NCBI GenBank assembly: GCA_023402175.1 | Contig: JAEXCN010000099.1 | Location: forward strand, 25,178 to 57,177 | From: Pseudomonadota bacterium | GTDB lineage: Bacteria > Myxococcota_A > Polyangia > Polyangiales > Polyangiaceae | Reading direction: 5' to 3' | DNA: 32,000 bases | In this document: positions 7,989 to 16,172 of the stretch, piece after piece | Numbering within the stretch: the first letter of the stretch is position 1 | Layout of the letters: each line of letters begins with the position of its first letter | Notes under the pieces: generated by a model | The model's input: the letters and a program-made list of their open reading frames with translations, nothing else | Databases searched by the model: none | Told to the model about the DNA's origin: nothing | Translations under genes and position numbers: made by a program

Positions 7989-8045
7989 GTCAGCTCACCG
8001 GGGTTGAACCGGCAGCCTCTGCTCTCGGCCACGTTGGCGAGCAGT
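7989..8045 (-). pseudogene. truncated tRNA-like remnant (hairpin plus T-arm, ~57 nt)
   Basis: Hairpin CTGCTC...GAGCAG followed by T-arm GCCGG-TTCAACC-CCGGT. No complete cloverleaf and only 5/7 acceptor pairs. Confidence 0.4.
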
Positions 8046-8118
8046 ACGGGGCGAGAGGATCGAACTCTCCTAGCCCTGCTTGTGAGGCAGGTGTCATCAC
8101 CAGATGAGCGGGCCCCGC
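8045..8118 (-). tRNA. tRNA-Val(CAC), 74 nt, degenerate D-stem
   Basis: Acceptor GCGGGGC/GCCCCGT (G1-U72). AC CCTGC-CTCACAA-GCAGG. T GAGAG-TTCGATC-CTCTC. C8, and D-stem GCTC/TGAC mispaired. Confidence 0.65.
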
Positions 8119-8157
8119 GTTCTCCGCCCCGAACCGCAGCTCGGAGCGTTTTGCCGG

Positions 8158-8231
8158 TTCCGGAGGAGGGATTCGCACCCCTCATCCCAGCGGTTCAAAG
8201 CCGCGGATCTTTGCTCTTGGACCACTCCGGA
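8158..8231 (-). tRNA. tRNA-Gln(UUG), 74 nt, non-canonical
   Basis: Acceptor TCCGGAG/CTCCGGA. AC loop CTTTGAA. T-loop TGCGAAT (G55). D-loop CAAGAGCAAA lacks GG. Confidence 0.6.
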
Positions 8232-8285
8232 TCGGGCGCGTCGTGAGCGCTCGTACTCGAGCGCGTCCAGGGCAAGACGCGCCGG

Positions 8286-8354
8286 TCGCTACGGGCAGAG
8301 TCGAACTGCCTGGGCCGCGCTCATGAGGCGCGCCCTCCTCCGAGGAACGCAGCG
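8286..8354 (-). tRNA. tRNA(CAU) Met/Ile2-type, 69 nt, mini D-arm
   Basis: Acceptor CGCTGCG/CGTAGCG. D CCTC-GGAG-GAGG (4-nt loop). AC CGCGC-CTCATGA-GCGCG. T GGCAG-TTCGACT-CTGCC. Confidence 0.65.
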
Positions 8355-8389
8355 ATGCTTGCGTTCTGCACGGATGCGAACGCAGGCGG

Positions 8390-8460
8390 AGCGGTGACCG
8401 AGAATCGCACTCGGATCTCGAGCGTGGCGGGCTCGGGTTCTACTCTTGAACTATCACCGC
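8390..8460 (-). tRNA. tRNA-Gly(GCC), 71 nt, non-canonical
   Basis: Acceptor GCGGTGA/TCACCGC. D GTTC-AAGAGTA-GAAC (no GG). AC CGAGC-CCGCCAC-GCTCG (C33). T CCGAG-TGCGATT-CTCGG (G55). Confidence 0.7.
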
Positions 8461-8566
8461 AGAGGCCGGGCGATGACACCCATCGCGCACGGGTAGAGCG
8501 GCCCTCGCACCGTCCTCATCCTTCGCTACCAGTGAGGTGCCCCGCTCTCTGGCCGTGGGCGGCACG

Positions 8567-8623
8567 TGAAAAGAGCTCGTCCCCAAGTCATGTCCGCTTG
8601 GAGCTGTCCCTCGTGGGGACGAG
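8567..8623 (-). terminator. possible intrinsic terminator downstream of rsr
   Basis: Minus sense: 10-bp GC stem GCTCGTCCCC/GGGGACGAGC followed by TCTTTTC. The apical loop is long (30 nt), so the call is weak. Confidence 0.35.
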
Positions 8624-8705
8624 CAGGTGATCGGCAACGAGGGGCGTGAAGACGGGCCTTCACGGGCATTTGCCGGATGAATTCGATCGAGTCGCAGATC
8701 GACAA

Positions 8706-10313
8706 TCAGATCGAGACGGACTCGATCTCGTGGAGAAAGGCGGAGCCGTCGGCGTCACCTTTCGCGAACGCGGCCACGATCTCGAAGACGGCATCGGAGA
8801 AACCGCCGACGTTCAGCACATCGCTGCGGTTCGCGACCTGCGTGGTCGCGTAGGGCTGCAGGTCGACGAGCACGAGCCTGGCGCGCGGATTGTTCGCACG
8901 GAGTCGCTCCCATTCCTCGGCCATGACGGTCGCTCTCGTCGCGTTCGATGCGCTCGGATCCACAGCGCGTGGCTCGAGCCTGAAGTCCGCCCACGACTGG
9001 TTGTCGGAGACGAAGACGACGAGGTCGGGGGCCATGCCGCGCGCATTGAGCCACCGCAGCGGCGCAGCGCACGAGGTCCCGCCGCTCGGGAGCGACGAGA
9101 GGAGCTCGGCGTTGGTGACCACCGAATCCAGCGCGTTGAGCTGACGACGAAGGGGGACGACGTCGTCCGAGAACGGCAGGACCGTCGCGCGCTCGTTCTT
9201 CCGGAGCAGCGCGGCAGTCGCGAGCGCGGCGACGTCGATGCAACGGACCTTGGAGGAGGCAGTCCCGCGCCGGCCCGTGACTGGAGAGTGCATCGACCCT
9301 GACACGTCCGGACACAGCGCGACGGAGCCGGCGACCTCGGGCACGTTCGCGACGGCGTGCTCGACGGAGCGAGCCAGCGCGTTGACGATCCCCGGCGGCA
9401 TGCTGGTCTCGACCGCGCGATATGCGGCGAGGAGCTGATAGGGGAGTGTGCGCGAGCGCTTCACGGCCTCGGCATCCGAGAGCTTCTCGGCGACGAGATC
9501 GACCATCGCGGGATCGGTGAAGACGCCGTGACGGTAGAGCGTGTTGAGGTTCTGGCGGAGCTGATTGAACGTCATCTTCTTCGCCAGCTCGGTCCAGTGC
9601 TGGGCGCGCAGTGGGAGAGCGGTGAGCATCTCGAACGGCACGTCCGGCAGAGGCTCCCGATCGTTCTTCTTCCAGGCTTCGAATGCCTGGGTGAGCGGCG
9701 GGAGCTTGGAGCAGTCCACGTTCTTTCCGATGAGGTAGCCGTAGAGGGCCTCACGAACGGCATCGGCTTCGCCCTTGTCGTTCCGCGGGGGAGGGCGAAC
9801 CATCTTGATGACGTCCGACATGGACGGGCTCTGACCGATGGACTGGCGGAAGATGGTCTCGGGGCTCTTCGCTGCGAACCATTCGCGGAGCGCTCGCTTC
9901 GGGGCCGAGCCGAACGACTTGCGGCCCGTGACACCGGAGCGAACGATCGCCACGAACGTCCGCAGCATCCGCGCGTCGTCGATGACGCGTGGGAAGACAC
10001 GCAGCATGAGGGCGACATCGCGCGCGGCGAGCCAGGCGACGAGGAACGCCGGGACGTCCTTCATCCTGCCGTGCTTGCGGCAATACACGGCCGTCTTTGC
10101 GACGAGCTCCGGGCTCACCGAGCTCGCGAGTGCCGCGACGTTCTCGAGCTGCTGCTCGTCGGTCGCGTAGAACGTGCCGTGAAACGTGCCGGTGACTGCG
10201 TATTGCGCCAGAGCATGCTCGGGCGGGAGCGCGTATGCCAGGCCGCCGGCTTCGTTGAATGCGTCGGCAACGGGGGCATTTCCTCCGTGACCAAATAGAT
10301 GCTTGTTCGGCAT
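8706..10313 (-). CDS. rsr: Ro60-related protein Rsr (TROVE domain plus vWA/MIDAS domain), 535 aa
   Basis: ATG 10313 preceded by AAGGAGAAACC. N-terminus NEAGGLAYAL...GTFHGTFYATDEQQ (TROVE-like). C-terminus ALCPDVSGSM (DxSxS MIDAS)...GGTSCAAPL...VFVSDNQSW. The track ORF extends to 10988 only because the upstream tRNA genes lack stops. Confidence 0.85.
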   Translation of the reverse strand: MPNKHLFGHGGNAPVADAFNEAGGLAYALPPEHALAQYAVTGTFHGTFYATDEQQLENVAALASSVSPELVAKTAVYCRKHGRMKDVPAFLVAWLAARDVALMLRVFPRVIDDARMLRTFVAIVRSGVTGRKSFGSAPKRALREWFAAKSPETIFRQSIGQSPSMSDVIKMVRPPPRNDKGEADAVREALYGYLIGKNVDCSKLPPLTQAFEAWKKNDREPLPDVPFEMLTALPLRAQHWTELAKKMTFNQLRQNLNTLYRHGVFTDPAMVDLVAEKLSDAEAVKRSRTLPYQLLAAYRAVETSMPPGIVNALARSVEHAVANVPEVAGSVALCPDVSGSMHSPVTGRRGTASSKVRCIDVAALATAALLRKNERATVLPFSDDVVPLRRQLNALDSVVTNAELLSSLPSGGTSCAAPLRWLNARGMAPDLVVFVSDNQSWADFRLEPRAVDPSASNATRATVMAEEWERLRANNPRARLVLVDLQPYATTQVANRSDVLNVGGFSDAVFEIVAAFAKGDADGSAFLHEIESVSI

Positions 10314-10403
10314 GGTTTCTCCTTTCCGAGCTCGTGTGAGGTGTCGGTCGTGCGCTTGCTCCGGCGCACGATCGTGTGTTGTTCCGGTTTCGAAGAGATG
10401 AGG

Positions 10404-10477
10404 CGTTCCCGACGGGATTCGAACCCGTGTTCCTGGCTTGAGAGACCAGAGTCCTTGGCCGTCTAGACGACGGGAAC
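10404..10477 (-). tRNA. tRNA-Glu(CUC), 74 nt, canonical
   Basis: GTTCCCG TC GTC-TAGACGGCCAAG-GAC T CTGGT-CTCTCAA-GCCAG GAAC ACGGG-TTCGAAT-CCCGT CGGGAAC G. Confidence 0.9.
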
Positions 10478-10519
10478 CGACGAGGAGCGCGCGGAGGCGC
10501 GGGCGCAGTCGAAAGATGA

Positions 10520-10647
10520 AGGTCGTCCGAGTGTCTCGAGCATCGGTGTTGACTTGGGAGTCGAACCCAAAACGGTCAGCTTCTGAGGCTGGTGTCCTTC
10601 CATTGGACGAGTCGAGTGCGTGTGAGCTCGGGTCGAGCGGACGACCT
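10520..10647 (-). ncRNA. Y-RNA-like candidate: tRNA-like domain (anticodon CAG, short variable loop, weak acceptor) clamped by a long terminal stem module
   Basis: 10-bp H1 AGGTCGTCCG/CGGACGACCT, 7x7 internal loop (CTCGACC / AGACACT), 5-bp H2 CGAGC/GCTCG, then TCACACGC. This leads into D GTCC-AATGGAA-GGAC, AC CCAGC-CTCAGAA-GCTGA and T TTGGG-TTCGACT-CCCAA. The same module occurs in units A-D. Lies about 200 nt upstream of rsr. Confidence 0.5.
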
Positions 10648-10721
10648 GGATGCAGCGGCTGGAGTCGCACCAGCGTCTCGAGCTTATGAGGCTCGCGGGG
10701 TGGCTCCTCCCCCACGCTGCA
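10647..10721 (-). tRNA. tRNA(CAU) Met/Ile2-type, 72 nt plus encoded CCA
   Basis: Acceptor TGCAGCG/CGCTGCA. D GGGG-AGGAGCCA-CCCC. AC CGAGC-CTCATAA-GCTCG. T GCTGG-TGCGACT-CCAGC (G55). T73-CCA. Confidence 0.75.
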
Positions 10722-10760
10722 ATGAGTCTCCGGATCGAGAGTGTTCTCGCGTCTGGAGGG

Positions 10761-10830
10761 CACCTTCGCCGGGAGTCGAACCCGGAGAACGAGCTTCGGA
10801 GGCTCGGCCCTGATTCCGCAGGACGAAGGT
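10761..10830 (-). tRNA. tRNA-Arg(CCG), 70 nt
   Basis: Acceptor ACCTTCG/CGAAGGT. AC CGAGC-CTCCGAA-GCTCG. T CCGGG-TTCGACT-CCCGG. D-arm CCTG-CGGAAT-CAGG shifted by 1 nt. Confidence 0.7.
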
Positions 10831-10834
10831 AGGG

Positions 10835-10923
10835 AGGAAGAAAGAGGTCTCGAACCCCACACGCTCTTCCGAGCGTGCGCATTGCTTTCGAGGCAAGCCC
10901 GGCGCCCAGCCGGTTTTTCATCC
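10835..10923 (-). tRNA. tRNA-Ser(CGA), class II, 89 nt
   Basis: Acceptor GGATGAA/TTCTTCC (one U-U). AAA linker. D CCGG-CTGGGCG-CCGG. AC loop CTCGAAA. Variable arm ACGCTC-GGAA-GAGCGT. T-loop TTCGAGA. Confidence 0.75.
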
Positions 10924-10930
10924 ATGTCAG

Positions 10931-11003
10931 TGGTCGGTGAGGGAATCGAACCCCCTACGCAGAGCTTTTCAAACTCCCGCTCTACCAATTGAGCTTACCG
11001 ACC
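10931..11003 (-). tRNA. tRNA-Phe(GAA), 73 nt, canonical
   Basis: GGTCGGT AA GCTC-AATTGGTA-GAGC G GGAGT-TTGAAAA-GCTCT GCGTA GGGGG-TTCGATT-CCCTC ACCGACC A. Confidence 0.9.
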
Positions 11004-11015
11004 GTTTCAACGTGC

Positions 11016-11090
11016 TGGCCTCCCCGCCAGGAATCGAACCTGGACAACTGGCTTCGTAGACCGGTGCGTGGGATCCACCACGACGAGGAG
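11016..11090 (-). tRNA. tRNA-Arg(ACG), 72 nt plus encoded CCA
   Basis: Acceptor CTCCTCG/CGGGGAG. AC loop CTACGAA (stem has a C-A mismatch). T CCAGG-TTCGATT-CCTGG. 5-bp shifted D-stem CGTGG/CCACG. Confidence 0.7.
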
Positions 11091-11094
11091 AGGG

Positions 11095-11182
11095 AGGAAG
11101 GCAGAGGACTCGAACCTCACGCGGCTCGACACCGCGCGAATCGCGTTCCAGACGATCTCCGCCCCCGGCGGATTTGCCTTCC
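11095..11182 (-). tRNA. tRNA-Ser(GGA), class II, 88 nt
   Basis: Acceptor GGAAGGC/GCCTTCC. AAA linker. D TCCG-CCGGGGG-CGGA. AC ATCGT-CTGGAAC-GCGAT. Variable arm CGCGG...CCGCG. T-loop TTCGAGT. Paralog of Ser(CGA). Confidence 0.75.
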
Positions 11183-11216
11183 GGGTATTGCAATGCGCCT
11201 GCTCATGCGAGCGCGG

Positions 11217-11291
11217 TCAGGACGGCAGGATTCGAACCTGCGCTCTCCAGTCCCCCAGACTGGCGCTTTTGCCGGGCTAAGCTACGCCCTG
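11217..11291 (-). tRNA. tRNA-Pro(GGG), 75 nt
   Basis: CAGGGCG TA GCTT-AGCCCGGCAA-AAGC G CCAGT-CTGGGGG-ACTGG AGAGC GCAGG-TTCGAAT-CCTGC CGTCCTG A. Confidence 0.85.
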
Positions 11292-11390
11292 AGGCTTTCA
11301 CGTAGTCGTGGAAATCAAGAATAAAGTGGTCCAGTTTCACGTCATGGACCAGGACGCGGGAGCTCTGTCGACGCTCACGCGATCGACGCC

Positions 11391-11924
11391 TCATGCAGAG
11401 AGCGGAGCCGAAGCCGTGTAGCCGTCGCAGTACGGCTGCCAGACATCCGGCAGATCACCCTCATCGAGACGGATCGGCGGCACGGCGGGCAGCCAGGTCG
11501 GCTTCTTCGGCTGCCGCAGCAGCTTCATGCCGGCCTGCTCAGGCGTGCGGCTCCCCTTGCGATCGTTGCATGCGTAGCAGGAGGTGACGATGTTCTCCCA
11601 AACCGTCTTTCCTCCCTGCACGCGCGGGATGACGTGGTCGTAGTTGAGGCCTCTGATCGGCTTCTTGTCACCGCAGTACTGGCAGCGGAACCTGTCGCGC
11701 GTAAAGACGTTCATCCGGGAGAAGCGGACCGACTGCTTCGTCGACACCGACCCCTTCTTCAGGCGGACCACGGCGGGCGTCATCATCGCGATGCTCGGGG
11801 CACGGAGCTCCGCGTCCCAGGTCTCGATGACTTCGACCTTGCCGAGATAAGCCAGCACGACGGCGCGCTGCCAGGGAATGATCTTGTGAGGCGCCATCCA
11901 TGGAGTCAGCATCAGCGTTTGCAT
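11391..11924 (-). CDS. HNH endonuclease (177 aa)
   Basis: CQYCG...DHVIPRVQGGKTVWENIVTSCYACNDRKG (HNH with Cys4 zinc motif). N-terminus IIPWQRAVVLAYLGKVEVIE is typical of the small stand-alone HNH family. Same strand as the tRNA array. Confidence 0.85.
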   Translation of the reverse strand: MQTLMLTPWMAPHKIIPWQRAVVLAYLGKVEVIETWDAELRAPSIAMMTPAVVRLKKGSVSTKQSVRFSRMNVFTRDRFRCQYCGDKKPIRGLNYDHVIPRVQGGKTVWENIVTSCYACNDRKGSRTPEQAGMKLLRQPKKPTWLPAVPPIRLDEGDLPDVWQPYCDGYTASAPLSA

Positions 11925-12064
11925 GGGTCACCGTTTCTTTCTCGTTTTCAAGGCTCGATCTCCTTTTCGGAGGGATGAAGAAGTCGTGCGGGATGCACGA
12001 CGACGGGCGTCATCAGAGATAGCGAACGGACGGTGCGCTGATGTTGCTCGGATATGGCGAGTAG

Positions 12065-12149
12065 TGTCACCGGAGGGAGTCGAACCCTCAAACTCGCAAC
12101 GGAGCCCAGCATCTCGGGCTGGCGTGTATTCCAGTTCCACCACGGTGAC
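12065..12149 (-). tRNA. tRNA-Leu(GAG), class II, 85 nt
   Basis: Acceptor GTCACCG/CGGTGAC, A73. 3-bp D-stem. AC CCAGC-CCGAGAT-GCTGG (C33). ~16-nt variable arm. T GAGGG-TTCGACT-CCCTC. Confidence 0.8.
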
Positions 12150-12186
12150 GTGTCGCGTCCGTCTCGCGCTCGGCGATCTTGGACGT

Positions 12187-12266
12187 TGGTACCGACGGAG
12201 GGATTCGAACCCTCACAACACACAGTTTCTGAGACTGCGGCCTCTACCAGATTGGGCCACGTCGGC
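12187..12266 (-). tRNA. tRNA with Leu anticodon CAG but only a 7-nt variable loop (77 nt plus CCA)
   Basis: GCCGACG TG GCC-CAATCTGGTAGA-GGC C GCAGT-CTCAGAA-ACTGT GTGTTGT GAGGG-TTCGAAT-CCCTC CGTCGGT A CCA. Leu-like D-arm but no long variable arm. Confidence 0.65.
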
Positions 12267-12298
12267 ATGAAGCGCGATCCGCAGGGCGGCTTGCGCGG

Positions 12299-12373
12299 TC
12301 TGTGCAGGAGGATTCGAACCTCCAATCCCTCCGACCCGAACGGAGTGCTCTAGCCAGGTTGAGCCATGCACAG
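12299..12373 (-). tRNA. tRNA-Pro(CGG), 75 nt, canonical
   Basis: CTGTGCA TG GCTC-AACCTGGCTA-GAGC A CTCCG-TTCGGGT-CGGAG GGATT GGAGG-TTCGAAT-CCTCC TGCACAG A (C1-G72, A73). Confidence 0.9.
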
Positions 12374-12412
12374 AGAAACGACGATGATCGACGGGAGCTC
12401 GAGCCATCGCCG

Positions 12413-12484
12413 TGGTGGACCAGTCGGGAGTCGCACCCGAACCATCTGCTTGCAAGACAGACGTCTCCCCTCGGAGACAAGCCC
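12413..12484 (-). tRNA. tRNA-Ala(UGC), 69 nt plus CCA, mini D-arm
   Basis: Acceptor GGGCTTG/CTGGTCC with G3-U70. D CTCC-GAGG-GGAG (4-nt loop). AC TCTGT-CTTGCAA-GCAGA. T TCGGG-TGCGACT-CCCGA (G55). Confidence 0.7.
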
Positions 12485-12523
12485 ATGTTGAATCACTGCA
12501 TGACGGCGGGACTGGCCCGCCGG

Positions 12524-12596
12524 TGCGGCGCGCAGGGATCGCACCTGCCTCCTCCTGCTCGTCATGCAGGCGCAGTCGCTAGACTGCCAGCGCCGC
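12524..12596 (-). tRNA. tRNA-Val(GAC), 73 nt
   Basis: GCGGCGC TG GCAG-TCTAGCGA-CTGC G CCTGC-ATGACGA-GCAGG AGGAG GCAGG-TGCGATC-CCTGC GCGCCGC A. G55, and no GG in the D-loop. Confidence 0.75.
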
Positions 12597-12619
12597 TCTT
12601 CTCGTCGAAGAGAGCTTCG

Positions 12620-12692
12620 TGGATCACCTGCGAATCGAACGCAGTGCGGGCTCCTTATCAGAGAGTCCAGGGTGACCAACCCGTCGTGATCC
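12620..12692 (-). tRNA. tRNA-Ile(GAU), 73 nt
   Basis: GGATCAC GA CGGG-TTGGTCAC-CCTG G ACTCT-CTGATAA-GGAGC CCGCA CTGCG-TTCGATT-CGCAG GTGATCC A. Confidence 0.8.
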
Positions 12693-12715
12693 GTCGTTTA
12701 TGTCTGGTGAACGAT

Positions 12716-12787
12716 TGGAGAGCCGAGAGGGAGTTGAACCCTCGCGCGCCGTTTTGCAGACGACGATCCTCCCCGGAGAATCGGCTC
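12716..12787 (-). tRNA. tRNA-Cys(GCA), 69 nt plus CCA, mini D-arm
   Basis: Acceptor GAGCCGA/TCGGCTC. D TCC-GGGGA-GGA. AC GTCGT-CTGCAAA-ACGGC. T GAGGG-TTCAACT-CCCTC. T73-CCA. Confidence 0.65.
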
Positions 12788-12852
12788 GAAGAAGTGGGCG
12801 CAGTTCCCTGTTGGCCGACGTCACGTGCGCGTCGGACGTTGGGGCTGCGCGG

Positions 12853-12923
12853 AGCGGGCAGAGGGAATCGCACCCTCATTGTCAGTTTGGAAGACTGCGG
12901 TCCTACTGTTGGACGATACCCGC
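12853..12923 (-). tRNA. tRNA-Gly(UCC), 71 nt
   Basis: GCGGGTA TC GTCC-AACAGTA-GGAC C GCAGT-CTTCCAA-ACTGA CAAT GAGGG-TGCGATT-CCCTC TGCCCGC T. G55, and no GG in the D-loop. Confidence 0.75.
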
Positions 12924-13119
12924 AGGATATGAATCGAAGTATCGCAAGCCTCGACGAGATTGACGAAGACGTAGGTGATCGGCAGCTCGCGCTGCCGGGC
13001 ACCATGATGCACGAGCGAGCAGCAGCCGCTCTTGCATCATCGGCACATTGAAGCCGCCCGCGAAGGCAGCTTCCGTTCGCCCCGCAAGGAGAGAGTCCAC
13101 CGAGGTGGTCTCCTGAGAA

Positions 13120-13225
13120 GCGCTCGGCTGGAGTCCGCGGAGCGCTCTCTGACTCTCCCTATGCCATCGCTAGGTCGGTCGCCCGACGTTCGCTACCTTA
13201 GGACCGTTATAGTTACGGATGTAGT
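13120..13225 (-). ncRNA. 23S rRNA domain IV (H69-H71) look-alike fragment inside a ~400-nt non-tRNA spacer
   Basis: Minus sense 13218..13189 reads CCGTAACTATAACGGTCCTAAGGTAGCGAA, which as I recall it is the universally conserved 23S segment and contains the I-CeuI site. It is followed by GTCGGG..CCGACCT..CGATGGC..GAGAGTCAGAGA..CCGCGG, patches colinear with 23S H70/H71 but with the loops deleted. Confidence 0.6.
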
Positions 13226-13322
13226 CCTCGTCGGCATTCGAGACCGACGCTGATGTTGCTCGTGTCGTGTGAGATCTGTTGTTCGTAATTTTCGAGATCG
13301 CTGCCCAGGGATGGGGCAGCGC

Positions 13323-13398
13323 TGGTGGAACCGGCCGGACTCGCACCGGCAACCTCCTCGATGCCATCGAGGCGCTCTCCTGGCTGAGCTACGGCCCC
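13323..13398 (-). tRNA. tRNA-Ala(GGC), 73 nt plus CCA
   Basis: GGGGCCG TA GCTC-AGCCAGGA-GAGC G CCTCG-ATGGCAT-CGAGG AGGTT GCCGG-TGCGAGT-CCGGC CGGTTCC A CCA. G3-U70, G55. Confidence 0.85.
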
Positions 13399-13425
13399 TT
13401 TCGTTCGGATGTCCTTCGCGTGTGG

Positions 13426-13499
13426 TGGTGGAGCGACGGGGAATCGCACCCCGATCCCTGCAATGCGAATGCAGCGTTCTCCTGTTGAACTATCGCCCC
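13426..13499 (-). tRNA. tRNA-Ala(CGC), 71 nt plus CCA
   Basis: GGGGCGA TA GTTC-AACAGGA-GAAC G CTGCA-TTCGCAT-TGCAG GGAT CGGGG-TGCGATT-CCCCG TCGCTCC A CCA. G3-U70, G55. Confidence 0.8.
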
Positions 13500-13533
13500 A
13501 GGGTCCCCACGTGGTGGGGAGCAGACAAGTCGG

Positions 13534-13604
13534 CAGGCCGCGAAGGAATCGAACCCTCTCTCCGGGGGTTGGAATCCCGGCTGGTCACCATGACTCTACG
13601 GCCT
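13534..13604 (-). tRNA. tRNA-Trp(CCA), 71 nt, aberrant D-arm
   Basis: Acceptor AGGCCGT/GCGGCCT, G73. AC CGGGA-TTCCAAC-CCCCG (A31-C39 mismatch). T GAGGG-TTCGATT-CCTTC. The D region pairs only as GTC-ATGGT-GAC. Confidence 0.65.
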
Positions 13605-13631
13605 GTGCTCTCGAGCGCGGTGCGCTTGCAG

Positions 13632-13703
13632 CGCCTCGTAGGGGAATCGAACCCCTCTCGCCCCATAGACAGTGGGGTTGCGACGCCAGTCGCATCACGA
13701 GGC
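13632..13703 (-). tRNA. tRNA-Asp(GUC), 72 nt
   Basis: GCCTCGT GA TGCG-ACTGGCGT-CGCA A CCCCA-CTGTCTA-TGGGG CGAG AGGGG-TTCGATT-CCCCT ACGAGGC G. Position 37 is U. Confidence 0.75.
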
Positions 13704-13727
13704 AATGAACGTCGATATTCGTGGCGG

Positions 13728-13799
13728 TGTCCTCGGCAGGAGTCGAACCCGCGTCTGCCGGTTTAGAAGACCGGCGCCTCTCCGCTCGGCCACGAGGAC
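13728..13799 (-). tRNA. tRNA-Arg(UCU), 72 nt
   Basis: GTCCTCG TG GCC-GAGCGGAGA-GGC G CCGGT-CTTCTAA-ACCGG CAGAC GCGGG-TTCGACT-CCTGC CGAGGAC A. The D-arm looks like a class II type. Confidence 0.75.
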
Positions 13800-13820
13800 G
13801 TTCTTGCTCTCCTGGCTCGG

Positions 13821-13885
13821 CGTCCCCGGCAGGAGTCGAACCTGCGTCGACCGGATTAGGAGCCTATCCGTTCGGCCAGGATGAC
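13821..13885 (-). pseudogene. tRNA-like paralog of Arg(UCU) with ~7-nt deletion in the anticodon arm (65 nt)
   Basis: GTCATCC TG GCC-GAACGGATA-GGC T CC..TAATCCGG TCGAC GCAGG-TTCGACT-CCTGC CGGGGAC G. Two acceptor mismatches and no 5-7-5 anticodon arm. Confidence 0.5.
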
Positions 13886-13929
13886 AGAGGCTGTCTGCGC
13901 AGGCGAAGAGTGGATCGGTGCGCGGCCGG

Positions 13930-14002
13930 GGTAGCGTACGGGAATCGCACCCGCCTCCACTGAGTCACAATCAGCCCTCGTCACTAGACGAGTAACGCTA
14001 CC
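13930..14002 (-). tRNA. tRNA-His(GUG) with encoded G-1, 73 nt
   Basis: G-1 GTAGCGT TA CTCG-TCTAGTGA-CGAG G GCTGA-TTGTGAC-TCAGT GGAG GCGGG-TGCGATT-CCCGT ACGCTAC C73. G55. Confidence 0.8.
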
Positions 14003-14084
14003 ATGTATTCAGATGCTCATTCGAGTCGGTGATGTCAACCTCGAGCCTGAATTTCGTCTGCCGTTGATAGGCACTTCGTCGAAC

Positions 14085-14159
14085 TGGTGCTCCCGATCGG
14101 AATCGAACCGATACCTTCCGCTTGAAAGGCGGAGATCCTGACCACTAGATGACGGGAGC
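14085..14159 (-). tRNA. tRNA-Glu(UUC), 72 nt plus CCA
   Basis: GCTCCCG TC ATC-TAGTGGTCAG-GAT C TCCGC-CTTTCAA-GCGGA AGGT ATCGG-TTCGATT-CCGAT CGGGAGC A CCA. Confidence 0.85.
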
Positions 14160-14165
14160 AAACGT

Positions 14166-14308
14166 GTCGTCCGAGTGAGAAGGTCGTTGTCATGTGAATG
14201 ACGGGTTGACTGCCCGTTGCCTTACCACTTGGCTACGATGGCGAAACGCCAGCGGCTGGATTCGAACCAGCGATTCGATTGCGTGTAGGACCTGTTCGAT
14301 CGGACGAC
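14166..14308 (-). ncRNA. permuted tRNA-like ncRNA unit A (Y-RNA/YrlA-like candidate)
   Basis: Minus-sense order: H1 GTCGTCCG, loop ATCGAAC, H2 AGGTC, CTACACGCAATCGAATC. Then T-arm GCTGG-TTCGAAT-CCAGC, acceptor 3' strand CGCTGGC, cap GTTTC, acceptor 5' strand GCCATCG, TA. Then D GCC-AAGTGGTAA-GGC, hairpin ACGGG-CAGTCAA-CCCGT, H2' GACCT, loop TCTCACT, H1' CGGACGAC. Confidence 0.5.
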
Positions 14309-14457
14309 GACGAGGGGGCCGTAGAGCGCCGACGATGATCGGCGCGGTAAAGGAGCGCCTCGTCAGGTGCGTGCCTGCGAGGCGTGGAGCTCAGAGGCGA
14401 GCTCGGCAAGCTCGGCGGCGTCCGGTGCGTTGGACGCGCGGGCTGCTGAAGAAAAGT

Positions 14458-14627
14458 CCTCACCCGAGTGAAAAAGCCGGTTGGATGGTTCCATCATTCA
14501 AGATGAGTGCCTTTACCAGTTAGGCTATCGCTGCGTACGATTTGCGGTGGCGGGCACCGTGAGCAGCGAGTCGGATTCGAACCGACATTTCCTCGATTGC
14601 GTGTAGGGCATCTTCGGTCGGGTGAGG
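14458..14627 (-). ncRNA. permuted tRNA-like ncRNA unit B
   Basis: H1 CCTCACCCG/CGGGTGAGG, loops ACCGAAG / TTTCACT, H2 ATGCC/GGCTT, CTACACGCAAT. T GTCGG-TTCGAAT-CCGAC. Acceptor TCGCTGC, 28-nt cap, GCAGCGA. D GCC-TAACTGGTAAA-GGC. Hairpin TCATC-TTGAAT-GATGG. Confidence 0.5.
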
Positions 14628-14663
14628 GAAATCGGAATGCGCTTAGCTCGCTGCGCGAGCATC

Positions 14664-14744
14664 TGGTCCCCCGTGATGGAATCGAACCACCTACCGAAAG
14701 GCACCGGGTTACGACCGGCTGCTCCGCCATGGAGCGAACGAGGG
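14664..14744 (-). tRNA. tRNA-Tyr(GUA), 78 nt plus CCA
   Basis: CCCTCGT TC GCTC-CATGGCG-GAGC A GCCGG-TCGTAAC-CCGGT GCCTTTCGGTA GGTGG-TTCGATT-CCATC ACGGGGG A CCA. C33, 11-nt variable region. Confidence 0.75.
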
Positions 14745-14752
14745 AAGAGGGG

Positions 14753-14909
14753 CACCCGAGTGAGAAAGCCGTGTTGTCGTCTGAATGGACGAGCGCCTTA
14801 CCATTAGGCCACGCTGGAATAGGTGTTTTGGAGCTCGATGGCTCACGGCTCCAGCGGACGGAATCGAACCGTCGTGTCTCATTGCGTGTAGGGCATTCCC
14901 TGGCGGGTG
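14753..14909 (-). ncRNA. permuted tRNA-like ncRNA unit C
   Basis: H1 CACCCG/CGGGTG, loops CCAGGGA / TCTCACT, H2 ATGCC/GGCTT, CTACACGCAAT. T GACGG-TTCGATT-CCGTC. Acceptor CGCTGGA, 31-nt cap, TCCAGCG (identical to the tRNA-Asn acceptor). D GCC-TAATGGTAA-GGC. Hairpin TCGTC-CATTCA-GACGA. Confidence 0.5.
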
Positions 14910-14913
14910 ACGG

Positions 14914-14985
14914 AGCCCACGTCCGGAGTCGAACCGGATCCTCCCGTGTACGAGACGGGTGCTCGACCATTCGAGCTGCGCGGGC
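14914..14985 (-). tRNA. tRNA-Thr(CGU), 72 nt, canonical
   Basis: GCCCGCG CA GCTC-GAATGGTC-GAGC A CCCGT-CTCGTAC-ACGGG AGGA TCCGG-TTCGACT-CCGGA CGTGGGC T. Confidence 0.9.
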
Positions 14986-14988
14986 AGG

Positions 14989-15042
14989 GGCCCCATGTAC
15001 TCATGGGGAACGAAAGAGGCGGGCCCCATGTACTCATGGGGA
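14989..15042. repeat. two direct copies of a 21-bp hairpin element (GGCCCCATGTACTCATGGGGA), period 33 bp
   Basis: Copies at 14989-15009 and 15022-15042. Each contains the inverted repeat CCCCATG-tact-CATGGGG. A related CCATG-ttgct-CATGG occurs at about 15486-15500. Confidence 0.7.
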
Positions 15043-15118
15043 AAAGAAGGTGCTCGCGGTGCGCGCGTCGCCTGGGTGGGAGGCGCGCGCGCCGGCGCGA
15101 GCGGGTGAGAAGAATGTC

Positions 15119-15264
15119 TCGTCCGAGTGGAGAAGCCGGTGCAAGTGCTCGTATGCGAAACGAGTGCCTTCCCATTAGGCTAGCAGCCCTGTGCCTTGCG
15201 GCTGGTGGACCACGTTGGAGTCGAACCAACATGTTGTGCGTGTAAGGCTTGTCCGAGCGGACGA
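15119..15264 (-). ncRNA. permuted tRNA-like ncRNA unit D (tRNA-Ala-type body)
   Basis: H1 TCGTCCG/CGGACGA, loops CTCGGAC / CTCCACT, H2 AAGCC/GGCTT, TTACACGCACAACAT. T GTTGG-TTCGACT-CCAAC. GTGGTCC-A-CCA, 13-nt linker GCCGCAAGGCACA, then GGGCTGC (7 pairs including G3-U70). TA, D GCC-TAATGGGAA-GGC, hairpin CTCGT-TTCGCAT-ACGAG (CGC). Confidence 0.55.
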
Positions 15265-15269
15265 AGAAG

Positions 15270-15341
15270 CTCCAGCGGAAGGAATCGAACCTTCGAAGGA
15301 CCGGTTAACGGCCGGCTGCCTGACCATTCGGCTTCGCTGGA
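15270..15341 (-). tRNA. tRNA-Asn(GUU), 72 nt
   Basis: TCCAGCG AA GCC-GAATGGTCA-GGC A GCCGG-CCGTTAA-CCGGT CCTTC GAAGG-TTCGATT-CCTTC CGCTGGA G. C33, U1-A72, G73. Confidence 0.8.
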
Positions 15342-15521
15342 ATACGTGCTCGTCGCGTTCGTGCCGCGCTGCTGCCGTCTCGACGAACCCGATCTCTTCC
15401 GAGGCAGGACGACGAAGCGGTCAGCGCGCACGAGACGCGACGAGCCTTGGCGCCAAGTTGTCATAGAGCGAGGGACCTCGAGCTCCCCATGTTGCTCATG
15501 GAGAACGAGACCGAGAGTCCT

Positions 15522-15595
15522 TGGTTCCGAGCACAGGATTCGAACCTGTCTTCCTGGTTTCAGAGGCCAGTGTCCTGCCGCTAGACGAGCCCGGA
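15522..15595 (-). tRNA. tRNA-Gln(CUG) with Glu-type body, 71 nt plus CCA
   Basis: TCCGGGC TC GTC-TAGCGGCAG-GAC A CTGGC-CTCTGAA-ACCAG GAAG ACAGG-TTCGAAT-CCTGT GCTCGGA A CCA. Close in body to Glu(CUC) at 10404. Confidence 0.75.
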
Positions 15596-15653
15596 GCAGG
15601 CGGCGGCGTGCGAAGGTCGCAAGTCGCCGGTGCCACGTCGTTCGACGCAGCAG

Positions 15654-15726
15654 TAGGTCCGGAGGGAATCGAACCCTCACCACCCCGGGTAAGAGCCGGG
15701 TGCGCTTCCGATTGCGCTACGGACCT
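15654..15726 (-). tRNA. tRNA-Lys(CUU), 73 nt, canonical
   Basis: AGGTCCG TA GCGC-AATCGGAA-GCGC A CCCGG-CTCTTAC-CCGGG GTGGT GAGGG-TTCGATT-CCCTC CGGACCT A. Confidence 0.9.
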
Positions 15727-15788
15727 GTATTTGGCGCGATGCGACGAACCGGGGCAGCACTGCCCGCAGCCGCACGCATCGCGGTGAG

Positions 15789-15861
15789 TGGGACGCGAGG
15801 GAGTCGAACCCTCATCCCTCGGCTTAAAAGGCCGGTGCTCGGCCGATTGAGCTAGCGCCCC
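15789..15861 (-). tRNA. tRNA-Lys(UUU), 73 nt, canonical
   Basis: GGGGCGC TA GCTC-AATCGGCC-GAGC A CCGGC-CTTTTAA-GCCGA GGGAT GAGGG-TTCGACT-CCCTC GCGTCCC A. First gene of the array in the direction of transcription. Confidence 0.9.
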
Positions 15862-16172
15862 GCAGTTTCGACAAACAATCGCGTTTGAACAGACGCGAGC
15901 GGCTCAGATGCCAAGCTTGAGAAACATGATTGATTCGTCCAGATGAAGTTAGGTTGATGGACGCCGTCTCGAGGACGCGCCCGTGTCTGGGTGCCGATGT
16001 AGGTCGGACGCTCGACGCTGGGACGAGCCGATCCGTGCGGCTTCGGGCCGCGATCTGGGACCGACCTCGACGAGGTGGAGAGGCCGAGGATGTCGACGCG
16101 CCCGGTACGCCCAAGCCCCTTTGCGGGGCACGGCGAAACGCACGAACGTCGGGACGAGCTAACCCGAGGCCC

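Follow-up and report, generated by a model that had tools for sequence, protein, structure and literature searches.

Bacterial Y RNAs of the YrlA type are defined by their location near the rsr gene on the same strand, by a stem formed from their paired ends and by the sequence YUAY (Y, pyrimidine), which opens the variable region (PMC4201824). In their core, whose order is permuted relative to tRNA, a conserved T-arm precedes an acceptor-like hairpin and a conserved D-arm, and a G15:C48/A15:U48 covariation was described for it (PMC4201824). The acceptor hairpin is closed in most described YrlAs, and the YrlA of Salmonella Typhimurium, which has no anticodon loop, is not cut by RNase P. RNase P cleaves the YrlA of Mycobacterium smegmatis, which has a length of about 147 nucleotides (nt) and an acceptor stem of 7 base pairs (bp), both in vivo and in vitro, and the 5′ half of this RNA gains a CCA end. 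The 7-bp length was given as the reason why, of the YrlAs tested, only this one serves as a substrate for RNase P (PMC4201824). The similarity of YrlAs to circularly permuted tRNAs was noted by Wang et al., who also considered that further processing might occur (bioRxiv 10.1101/312249), so neither this resemblance nor this idea is new here. The present analysis concerns an element of 146 nt, termed unit D, on the minus strand of a 32,000-nt stretch of DNA from a bacterium of the Polyangiaceae (contig JAEXCN010000099.1, positions 25,178 to 57,177; this whole stretch is referred to as the window).

An earlier note on this DNA had interpreted unit D as a permuted tRNA-Ala gene whose pieces are cut out and ligated, and had named a Y-RNA-like mimic as the fallback. 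It is this fallback that is now the best-supported identity. Unit D is probably a YrlA-class bacterial Y RNA, that is, a putative Ro60-bound tRNA mimic which is not religated into a decoding tRNA.

Layout and Predicted Structure of Unit D

The positions of all elements are listed in Table 1. The order of the elements given in the earlier note was confirmed: the T-arm is followed by GUGGUCC, A73 and CCA, a 13-nt linker, GGGCUGC, the dinucleotide UA and the D-arm. The two acceptor strands form seven pairs, of which four are Watson-Crick pairs and three are wobbles (G3·U70, U5·G68 and G6·U67), again as read before. The assignment of the minus strand as coding strand is also correct, since the wobbles exist only in the minus-strand RNA and all 31 tRNA genes of the surrounding array as well as rsr are located on the same strand. 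The loop UUCGCAU of the anticodon-arm mimic is indeed identical to the anticodon loop of the tRNA-Ala(CGC) gene at 13426-13499. With G3·U70, a 7-bp helix, A73 and an encoded 3′ CCA, unit D carries the acceptor identity set of alanyl-tRNA synthetase (AlaRS).

From 15264 to 15246, the minus strand reads UCGUCCG-CUC-GGA-C-AAGCC, followed by UUACACGCA-CAACAU before the T-arm. The D-arm consists of GCC-UAAUGGGAA-GGC and is followed by an A, and the sequence after the anticodon-like hairpin is CACUUGCACC-GGCUU-C-UCC-ACU-CGGACGA. The termini pair in every predicted fold and form a bulged stem of 7, 3 and 5 bp, interrupted by a 3x3 internal loop and a bulge. The motif CACUCGG is nearly invariant in the family alignments A2 and A3.

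The linker between CCA and G1 is a structured hairpin and not an inert spacer. The hairpin GCC-GCAA-GGC is conserved, with flanking covariation, in the five orthologues of unit D at the loci L011, L055, L012, L063 and L009 (L numbers denote the compared loci).

A Family of Homologous RNAs in Myxococcota

A scan for the pattern CTACACGCAA-N6-20-GGTTCGANTCC in one genome per species resulted in 72 loci, nearly all of them from Myxococcota (Polyangiaceae, Labilithrix, Kofleriaceae, Nannocystaceae and Haliangiales). A six-helix structure (outer stem, inner stem, T, acceptor, D and anticodon-like arm) was written onto an alignment of 43 units with short acceptor loops, and the covariance model R1 was derived from it. 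The model is built from units of other genomes, unit D being left out of its alignment. Unit D is matched by R1 over its full length (15115-15272) with 98.8 bits and an E-value of 1.6e-22. With R1, about 138 full-length units were identified; they are distributed over roughly 64 loci of Myxococcota and frequently stand in tandem, with up to six units per run.

In the 43-unit alignment, 93.7% of the cells are paired compared to 68% in shuffles and 29-44% with slid partners, and compensatory changes occur in 30 of the 34 pairs. The larger model-fitted alignment gave similar values (95.0% of the cells paired, 31 of 34 pairs with compensatory changes; shuffles 67-68% over both alignments). Compensatory changes were found in 7/7 pairs of the outer stem, which is 96% paired, in 5/6 pairs of the inner stem, in 7/7 pairs of the acceptor helix and in 5/5 pairs of the anticodon-like arm, and the T-arm is 99-100% paired. 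The most conserved part of the family is the terminal stem together with the flanking motifs CCG..., YUACACGCA and CACUCGG, and both helices of this stem covary.

The combination A15:U48 is present in 52 units and G15:C48 in 49 units, resulting in a total of 101 of 137 units compared to 51 expected. Position 15 lies in the D-loop, position 48 is the nucleotide immediately 5′ of the T-stem, and unit D has A15:U48. Since 15:48 is the Levitt pair of tRNA, this covariation indicates that an L-shaped tertiary fold is under selection. The acceptor helix comprises 7 bp in all family members. The anticodon-like loop has a length of 7 nt in 112 of 125 units, with a pyrimidine at position 32 in 96%, U33 in 89% and a purine at position 37 in 90%, and the three central positions are unconstrained (38 different triplets in the family).

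The window contains three paralogues (units A, B and C) with the same general layout as unit D, which have closed acceptor loops without CCA. Unit D and its five orthologues form a group of six members. A metagenome scan for further D-type orthologues with a T-loop and acceptor pattern returned only more copies from the L012 organism and ordinary tRNA 3′ ends.

Further observations were made on the family. The (C)CUACACGCAA motif, which follows the terminal stem and precedes the T-arm, does not vary among the roughly 138 units; it appears single-stranded, and no pairing partner was found for it. At L014, L038 and L042, which are contigs of metagenome-assembled genomes of Myxococcota, five or six full-length units stand in tandem upstream of a Ro60-like gene. 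The units of such a run each differ in the anticodon-like triplet and the acceptor stem, and L014 has a seventh, weaker match.

The window also contains an element, here called type 2, in which a non-permuted tRNA-like core (D-arm, anticodon-like arm and T-arm) is enclosed by the terminal stem of the units (GGUCGUCCG.../...CACUCGGACGACC); the CACACGCA motif is likewise shared. ARAGORN calls its core a tRNA-Leu(CAG), yet the long variable arm is missing. The element is located immediately upstream of tRNA-Glu and rsr. Counterparts are present at loci of the Ro60-like protein described below (e.g. L037:3650-3788), where ARAGORN calls odd tRNAs. A further R1 match (47 bits) at 13730-13886 was rejected as a unit, as it consists of a degenerate tRNA-like piece followed by a tRNA-Arg and has neither the ACACGCA motif nor the stem. 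The degenerate piece itself (13800-13886, minus strand), upstream of tRNA-Arg(UCU), has a D-arm, a T-arm and a poor acceptor and is without a proper anticodon stem.

Linkage to Ro60-Type Proteins

The window encodes the Ro60 orthologue Rsr. Unit A is located 3.85 kb and unit D 4.8 kb upstream of rsr on the same strand, with only tRNAs, an HNH endonuclease gene and other units in between. The rsr gene was also found beside units in 7 other loci. The same array, including orthologues of units A, B and D, is present in Myxococcales bacterium 68-20 (L012), whose Rsr shares 74% identity with that of the window.

The usual neighbour of the family RNAs is a conserved protein of 583 amino acids (aa), which is encoded directly downstream of units in 32 loci and in which Pfam detects only a vWA domain. 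Its AlphaFold model has a mean predicted local distance difference test (pLDDT) score of 73.6. The top five full-length PDB matches of this model are Ro60/TROVE structures (9kop, 2i91 with two chains, 1yvr and 9l5y; E-values of 3e-8 to 5e-7), and the remaining structure matches cover vWA domains alone. At the sequence level, a PDB profile search gave vWA domains only, and the comparison with the window Rsr using hhalign resulted in a probability of 1.6%. The 583-aa protein is thus linked to Ro60 by its predicted structure and not by its sequence, and it probably represents a divergent Ro60 clade. It accounts for at least 1279 database clusters, whose names do not go beyond 'VWA domain-containing' or 'hypothetical'.

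Comparison With Described Y RNAs

The YrlA traits of Chen et al. (2014), namely proximity to rsr on the same strand, the end-paired stem, YUAY, the permuted order of T-arm, acceptor and D-arm and the 15:48 covariation, are all present. The YUAY sequence, with which the motif UUACACGCA of unit D begins, is CUAC in units A to C and UUAC in unit D. In units A and D, the T-arm, the acceptor hairpin and the D-arm align, in this order, with positions 29/30-81 of the Rfam family RF02553. At the gathering thresholds, Rfam reports only tRNAs in the window and in eight related loci, and the Rfam matches over the units of these eight loci are partial tRNA matches only. Because of the shared YrlA traits and the linkage to Ro60-type genes across the family, the unit D family is, as judged from its sequences, a divergent and previously undescribed myxobacterial branch of the YrlA-type Y RNAs.

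The family shares with YrlA (RF02553, e.g. Salmonella Typhimurium) the Ro60 linkage, the strand of rsr, the paired ends, the permuted order, YUAY, the T- and D-arms and the 15:48 pair. It differs from YrlA by an additional 5-bp/7-nt anticodon-arm mimic between the D-arm and the 3′ strand, by the invariant CUACACGCAA, the constant 7-bp acceptor helix and the tandem sets. Moreover, many copies neighbour a Ro60-like protein which is not matched by the Pfam TROVE model.

The YrlA of M. smegmatis is similar to unit D in length and in its 7-bp acceptor, and its RNase P cut at the equivalent of G1 and its CCA-ended 5′ half correspond to the maturation considered for unit D below. Both of its halves remain bound to Rsr. 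In M. smegmatis, CA is added after nibbling, whereas the entire ACCA is encoded in unit D. G3·U70 is unreported for the M. smegmatis RNA, which was compared by its description, and unit D has in addition the anticodon-arm mimic and the location in a tRNA array. The Y RNAs Yrn1 and Yrn2 of Deinococcus radiodurans are bound by Rsr and transcribed jointly with a tRNA. A T-arm and possibly a 5-bp anticodon-like arm are present in Yrn1, but its arms are in the opposite order, and neither a D-arm nor an acceptor is clearly recognisable. The orientation of Yrn1 is approached more closely by the type-2 element at 10519-10652 than by unit D.

Alanine-Like Acceptor Features

For the acceptor statistics, 130 units with clean acceptor helices were used, corresponding to 112 unique stems. 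A G·U pair with the G on the 5′ strand is found at 3:70 in 18 of the 112 unique stems, compared to 22 of 672 at the remaining six positions of the helix taken together (odds ratio 5.7, Fisher p = 1.3e-6, with the unique stems treated as independent, which phylogenetically they are not fully). A73 is present in 14 of the 18 stems with G3·U70 and in 31 of the 94 others (p = 5e-4). G3·U70 is kept in about 15 different stem sequences, in which positions 4-7 change by compensatory substitution.

The combination of G1-C72, G2-C71, G3·U70 and A73 was identified in 19 units from 16 loci, i.e. in about one unit in seven. C74 follows in 18 of these, C74-C75 in 12 and the full CCA in 3, unit D included. 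Among all 130 units, A73 occurs in 57 and AC[C/U/A] in 51. In the orthologue group of unit D, A73-C74 is constant and C75 is present in five of the six members. Considering the enrichment of G3·U70, its association with A73/C74 and the recurrence throughout the family, the alanine-like acceptor features are, at the level of sequence comparison, a recurrent property of the family and not a coincidence.

The complete tRNA-Ala identity claimed in the earlier note therefore holds for the acceptor, where the set is real and recurrent, but not for the anticodon, since the CGC triplet is not conserved. The triplets of the D orthologues are CGC, CGC, CGU, CGU, CAA and CAA, with CGC occurring in the window and L011 only. 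Furthermore, 15 of 17 alanine-like acceptors are combined with non-alanine triplets (e.g. CCA, ACG, UUG, CUA, GAA, AUU, CAA and GUA), so that alanine would be misinserted at many codons if these RNAs took part in decoding. After this comparison of orthologues and family, the CGC loop was rejected as a signal of identity.

Possible Maturation and Alternative Explanations

A maturation path can be proposed for unit D. The RNA would be transcribed together with the tRNA array and released by the enzymes that process the flanking tRNAs, in parallel to D. radiodurans. The tRNA-like domain would adopt an L-shape, which is supported by the 15:48 covariation. The long bulged terminal stem is the presumed docking site of Rsr, as suggested by the gene linkage and the family. 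RNase P would then cut 5′ of G1 (15189) and the linker tail would be trimmed to CCA (15203), leaving a two-piece RNA held together by its helices, following the model of M. smegmatis. The 7-bp acceptor helix with G1 and A73-CCA makes an RNase P cut probable. Taken together, however, the chances that unit D is opened by RNase P and matured at its CCA appear about even, since the arm might just as well be held closed by the conserved hairpin that follows CCA. As a last and speculative step, AlaRS might charge the RNA via G3·U70 and A73. That a subset of myxobacterial Y RNAs including unit D is opened by RNase P, CCA-matured and charged by AlaRS, which would give a two-piece alanyl-tRNA-like RNA tethered to Ro60, is a tentative proposal and rather unlikely to hold in full.

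Several observations weigh against the YrlA assignment or the proposed charging. The scores of RF02553 are 21.6 bits for unit A and 16.6 bits for unit D, compared to a gathering score of 69. The distance of 4.8 kb between unit D and rsr is slightly above the 4 kb typical for YrlA. The 5′ sequence GNCGAAN0-1G, a putative Rsr contact, is only approximated (CUCGGACAAG in unit D, NCCGAAG in the family consensus). When unit D is folded in isolation, the three acceptor pairs beside the T-arm are predicted to be weak (p of about 0.01-0.02), as they compete with an extension of the T-stem. The free energy of the cloverleaf-like fold is -49.9 to -52.0 kcal/mol, which is 2.4-4.5 kcal/mol above the minimum of -54.4 kcal/mol. 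With regard to alanine, the incomplete independence of the stems mentioned above has to be considered, and of the six members of the D orthologue group three have G·U at 3:70, two A-U and one G-C, so that G3·U70 may not be under selection in this lineage. Finally, the hairpin after CCA may give a closed, extended acceptor arm that is never cut.

A first alternative explanation is a Y RNA whose acceptor arm is never opened. The 7-bp helix and the GCC-GCAA-GGC hairpin would then be separated by an internal loop composed of ACCA and ACA, and the alanine features would be unused relics, with G3·U70, A73 and CC left over from a tandem tRNA transcript according to the dimeric-tRNA model of Sim and Wolin. 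We consider this possible, if somewhat doubtful. It is in agreement with the closed hairpins of most described YrlAs and the uncut S. Typhimurium YrlA, with the closed paralogues A, B and C without CCA, with the linker hairpin conserved among the D orthologues and with the drift of their 3:70 pair. In addition, the tRNA genes of the window array encode N73-CC or CCA, so that a junction of two tRNAs would look alike, and R1 also matches tRNA-tRNA junctions in Myxococcus phage Mx1. Against this explanation, a G·U pair is one transition from a stabler pair and yet was kept at 3:70 in about 15 covaried stems, tied to A73/C74. The 7-bp length of all family acceptor helices, the RNase P determinant noted for M. 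smegmatis YrlA, also speaks against an arm that always stays closed.

The permuted tRNA-Ala gene of the earlier note, in which cuts at G1 and after CCA would be followed by excision of the terminal stem and ligation of the ends (e.g. by RtcB) to a decoding tRNA-Ala(CGC) with a long variable arm, is very improbable. All tRNA arms are present in permuted order, the acceptor has G3·U70, A73 and CCA, and the loop is that of tRNA-Ala(CGC). Moreover, a linkage of rsr with rtcB is frequent in other bacteria, and the same idea was raised for YrlA in general (bioRxiv 10.1101/312249). Of the suggested processing, the RNase P cut at G1 and subsequent CCA maturation are plausible in view of the M. smegmatis precedent, while the ligation finds no support. 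The stem whose removal would join the ends (H1/H2) is the most conserved part of the roughly 138 homologues and covaries as a helix, and it also encloses the non-permuted core of the type-2 elements. Its interruptions are a 3x3 internal loop and a bulge, not a bulge-helix-bulge motif, and no splicing endonuclease has been reported for bacteria (bioRxiv 10.1101/312249). In place of the postulated RtcB-like ligase, the loci encode Ro60 or the Ro60-like protein, and neither RtcB nor another ligase domain was found in the 20 open reading frames (ORFs) of the window scanned with Pfam. The array already has two ordinary tRNA-Ala genes, CGC among them, and the triplets of the family argue against decoding as described above. 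The permuted tRNA genes of Cyanidioschyzon merolae and Thermofilum pendens are similar in having the 3′ half before the 5′ half, an initially closed acceptor and paired termini, and are matured via a bulge-helix-bulge by splicing endonuclease and ligase to decoding tRNAs. The unit D family, in contrast, keeps the terminal stem as a functional element and leaves the anticodon unconstrained.

A functionless remnant, composed of the 3′ half of one dead tRNA and the 5′ half of the next, would fit to the other degenerate tRNA-like pieces of the array (e.g. 13800-13886) and to the partial R1 matches of tRNA-tRNA junctions. The conservation over the full length with compensatory changes in all six helices over about 138 copies, the conserved non-tRNA motifs and the constant linkage to Ro60-type genes make such a decayed dimer highly improbable.

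Two-piece transfer-messenger RNA (tmRNA) has a permuted gene order around the acceptor, the G3·U70 alanine identity and a two-piece mature form with a CCA end. Unit D has the same gene order (the piece with T-arm and CCA first, the G1 piece next) and an alanine acceptor identity, but the probability of a ribosome-rescue RNA of this kind is negligible, since it has 146 nt without tag reading frame or pseudoknots, full D- and anticodon arms, which tmRNA lacks, and a linkage to Ro60 instead of SmpB, and since ARAGORN and Rfam, which do detect tmRNA in phages Mx1 and GMA2, found none in the window.

tRNA Array, Neighbouring Genes and Phage Parallels

Table 1. Features of unit D, its paralogues and their genomic surroundings. 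Positions refer to the window unless a locus is given.
Feature	Position	Strand	Evidence or remark
Unit D, complete 146-nt YrlA-like Y RNA (putative), permuted tRNA-like core within terminal stem	15119..15264	minus	covariance model R1
Outer terminal stem, 5′ strand UCGUCCG	15258..15264	minus	pairs with 15119-15125; minimum-free-energy fold
Inner terminal stem, 5′ strand GGA-C-AAGCC	15246..15254	minus	pairs with 15129-15137; family helix 2
Single-stranded motif UUACACGCA, family consensus CUACACGCAA	15237..15245	minus	invariant columns in A2/A3
T-arm GUUGG-UUCGACU-CCAAC	15214..15230	minus	family helix 3
Acceptor 3′ strand GUGGUCC, positions 66-72	15207..15213	minus	U70 at 15209; family helix 4
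Encoded A73-C74-C75-A76	15203..15206	minus	A73 at 15206, CCA at 15203-15205; read directly
13-nt linker GCCGCAAGGCACA, GCC-GCAA-GGC tetraloop hairpin and ACA	15190..15202	minus	hairpin kept in orthologues
Acceptor 5′ strand GGGCUGC	15183..15189	minus	G1 at 15189, G3 at 15187; UA, then D-arm
D-arm GCC(U)-AAUGGGA-(A)GGC with A14, A15, G18, G19	15166..15180	minus	A15 pairs with U48 (15231)
Anticodon-arm mimic CUCGU-UUCGCAU-ACGAG, 5 bp/7 nt	15148..15164	minus	family helix 6
Inner terminal stem, 3′ strand GGCUU-C-UCC	15129..15137	minus	minimum-free-energy fold; family helix 2
Outer terminal stem, 3′ strand CGGACGA	15119..15125	minus	preceded by conserved CACU(CGG) motif (15126-15131 region)
Unit C, paralogue, closed 31-nt acceptor loop, without CCA	14748..14918	minus	R1 86.7 bits
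Unit B, paralogue, closed 28-nt acceptor loop	14456..14633	minus	R1 99.7 bits
Unit A, paralogue, closed 5-nt acceptor loop	14163..14315	minus	R1 120.1 bits; best Rfam YrlA match of the window
(C)CUACACGCAA motif in units D, C, B and A	approx. 15237-15245, 14876-14886, 14591-14601, 14281-14291		
Type-2 element, non-permuted tRNA-like core	10519..10652	minus	R1 39.8 bits, T/acceptor block skipped; fold z -2.8
tRNA gene array	8044..15861	minus	31 ARAGORN tRNAs and extra Rfam calls; Y RNAs and rsr embedded
rsr, Ro60 orthologue, 535 aa, TROVE and Ro60 vWA domains	8706..10313	minus	Pfam PF05731, PF25045
tRNA, GUU loop	15270..15341	minus	Rfam tRNA 52 bits; missed by ARAGORN; ends 6 nt before unit D terminal stem
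583-aa protein (MT..LPESQMGPAERLLDVVLGSSAHLWHNRPG...), probable divergent Ro60	L037:1701-3464	minus	and 31 other loci; not in window

The DNA of the window is bacterial with a G+C content of 66% and also encodes recA, a comM-like Mg-chelatase gene, a sigma-54 activator and a Ser/Thr kinase. Units C and A are followed by tRNAs which begin 5-9 nt after them. Two tRNAs of the array were missed by ARAGORN. The one directly upstream of unit D (15270-15341) has a GUU anticodon with a C instead of U at position 33, and the second (12416-12484, minus strand) was detected by Rfam with 31.7 bits. Between unit D and tRNA-Thr, two identical copies of CCCCATGTACTCATGGGG were found at 14991-15008 and 15024-15041, with a looser copy near 15483-15504. 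The sequence is an imperfect palindrome whose ends can pair as a hairpin, and the repeats may be processing or termination hairpins. An HNH endonuclease gene is located at 11391-11924 (minus strand) inside the array, as is also the case in the tRNA arrays of the phages Mx1, Francob and HyRo, which may point to a present or past mobility of the array.

Among phage proteins, the TROVE protein of Myxococcus phage Mx1 (L073, OR576727.2 44912-70561) is closest to the window Rsr, with 45% identity over the full length. Its gene is part of a tRNA array that also comprises HNH endonucleases and a tmRNA. This tmRNA is unannotated in the record (L073:1735-2112, Rfam 117.7 bits), and a weak candidate unit is present at L073:249-388 (33 bits). 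Actinophage Ro genes are likewise embedded in tRNA arrays. Because of these locations and the HNH genes in Mx1 and in the window, tRNA array, Ro60 and Y RNAs together give the impression of a shared module, which may be mobile. A megablast search of 14000-16000 against phage records gave no matches. Mycobacteriophage HyRo and Gordonia phage GMA2 encode YrlAs of the known type, in which the acceptor hairpin is closed and the alanine features are absent. In GMA2, a Pistol ribozyme match (56.8 bits, above gathering) was found at L076:6416-6472 between the YrlA and the tRNA array, near the tmRNA and a Ro-like gene.

Implications for the tRNA-Like Domain of Y RNAs

Besides the RNAs, the analysis uncovered the widespread divergent Ro60-like 583-aa protein (probable, as predicted from its structure) and the link of the chromosomal modules to the very similar modules of Mx1 and the actinophages. 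The function of the tRNA-like domain of bacterial Y RNAs has been a standing question since 2014. Before, M. smegmatis was the sole species known to open the acceptor and to add CCA, and aminoacylation was merely mentioned as a possibility. The myxobacterial RNAs add a large branch with a complete tRNA mimic (anticodon arm, U33 and R37), a 7-bp acceptor in all members and a recurrent alanine set. The recurrent alanine set and the full anticodon arm make the aminoacylation of Y RNAs a concrete and testable hypothesis. If these Y RNAs were alanylated, a biochemical activity would finally be assigned to the tRNA-like domain, and the ribonucleoprotein could use recognition by EF-Tu or the ribosome, or protection against exonucleases, bringing the RNA surveillance by Ro60 to the translation machinery.

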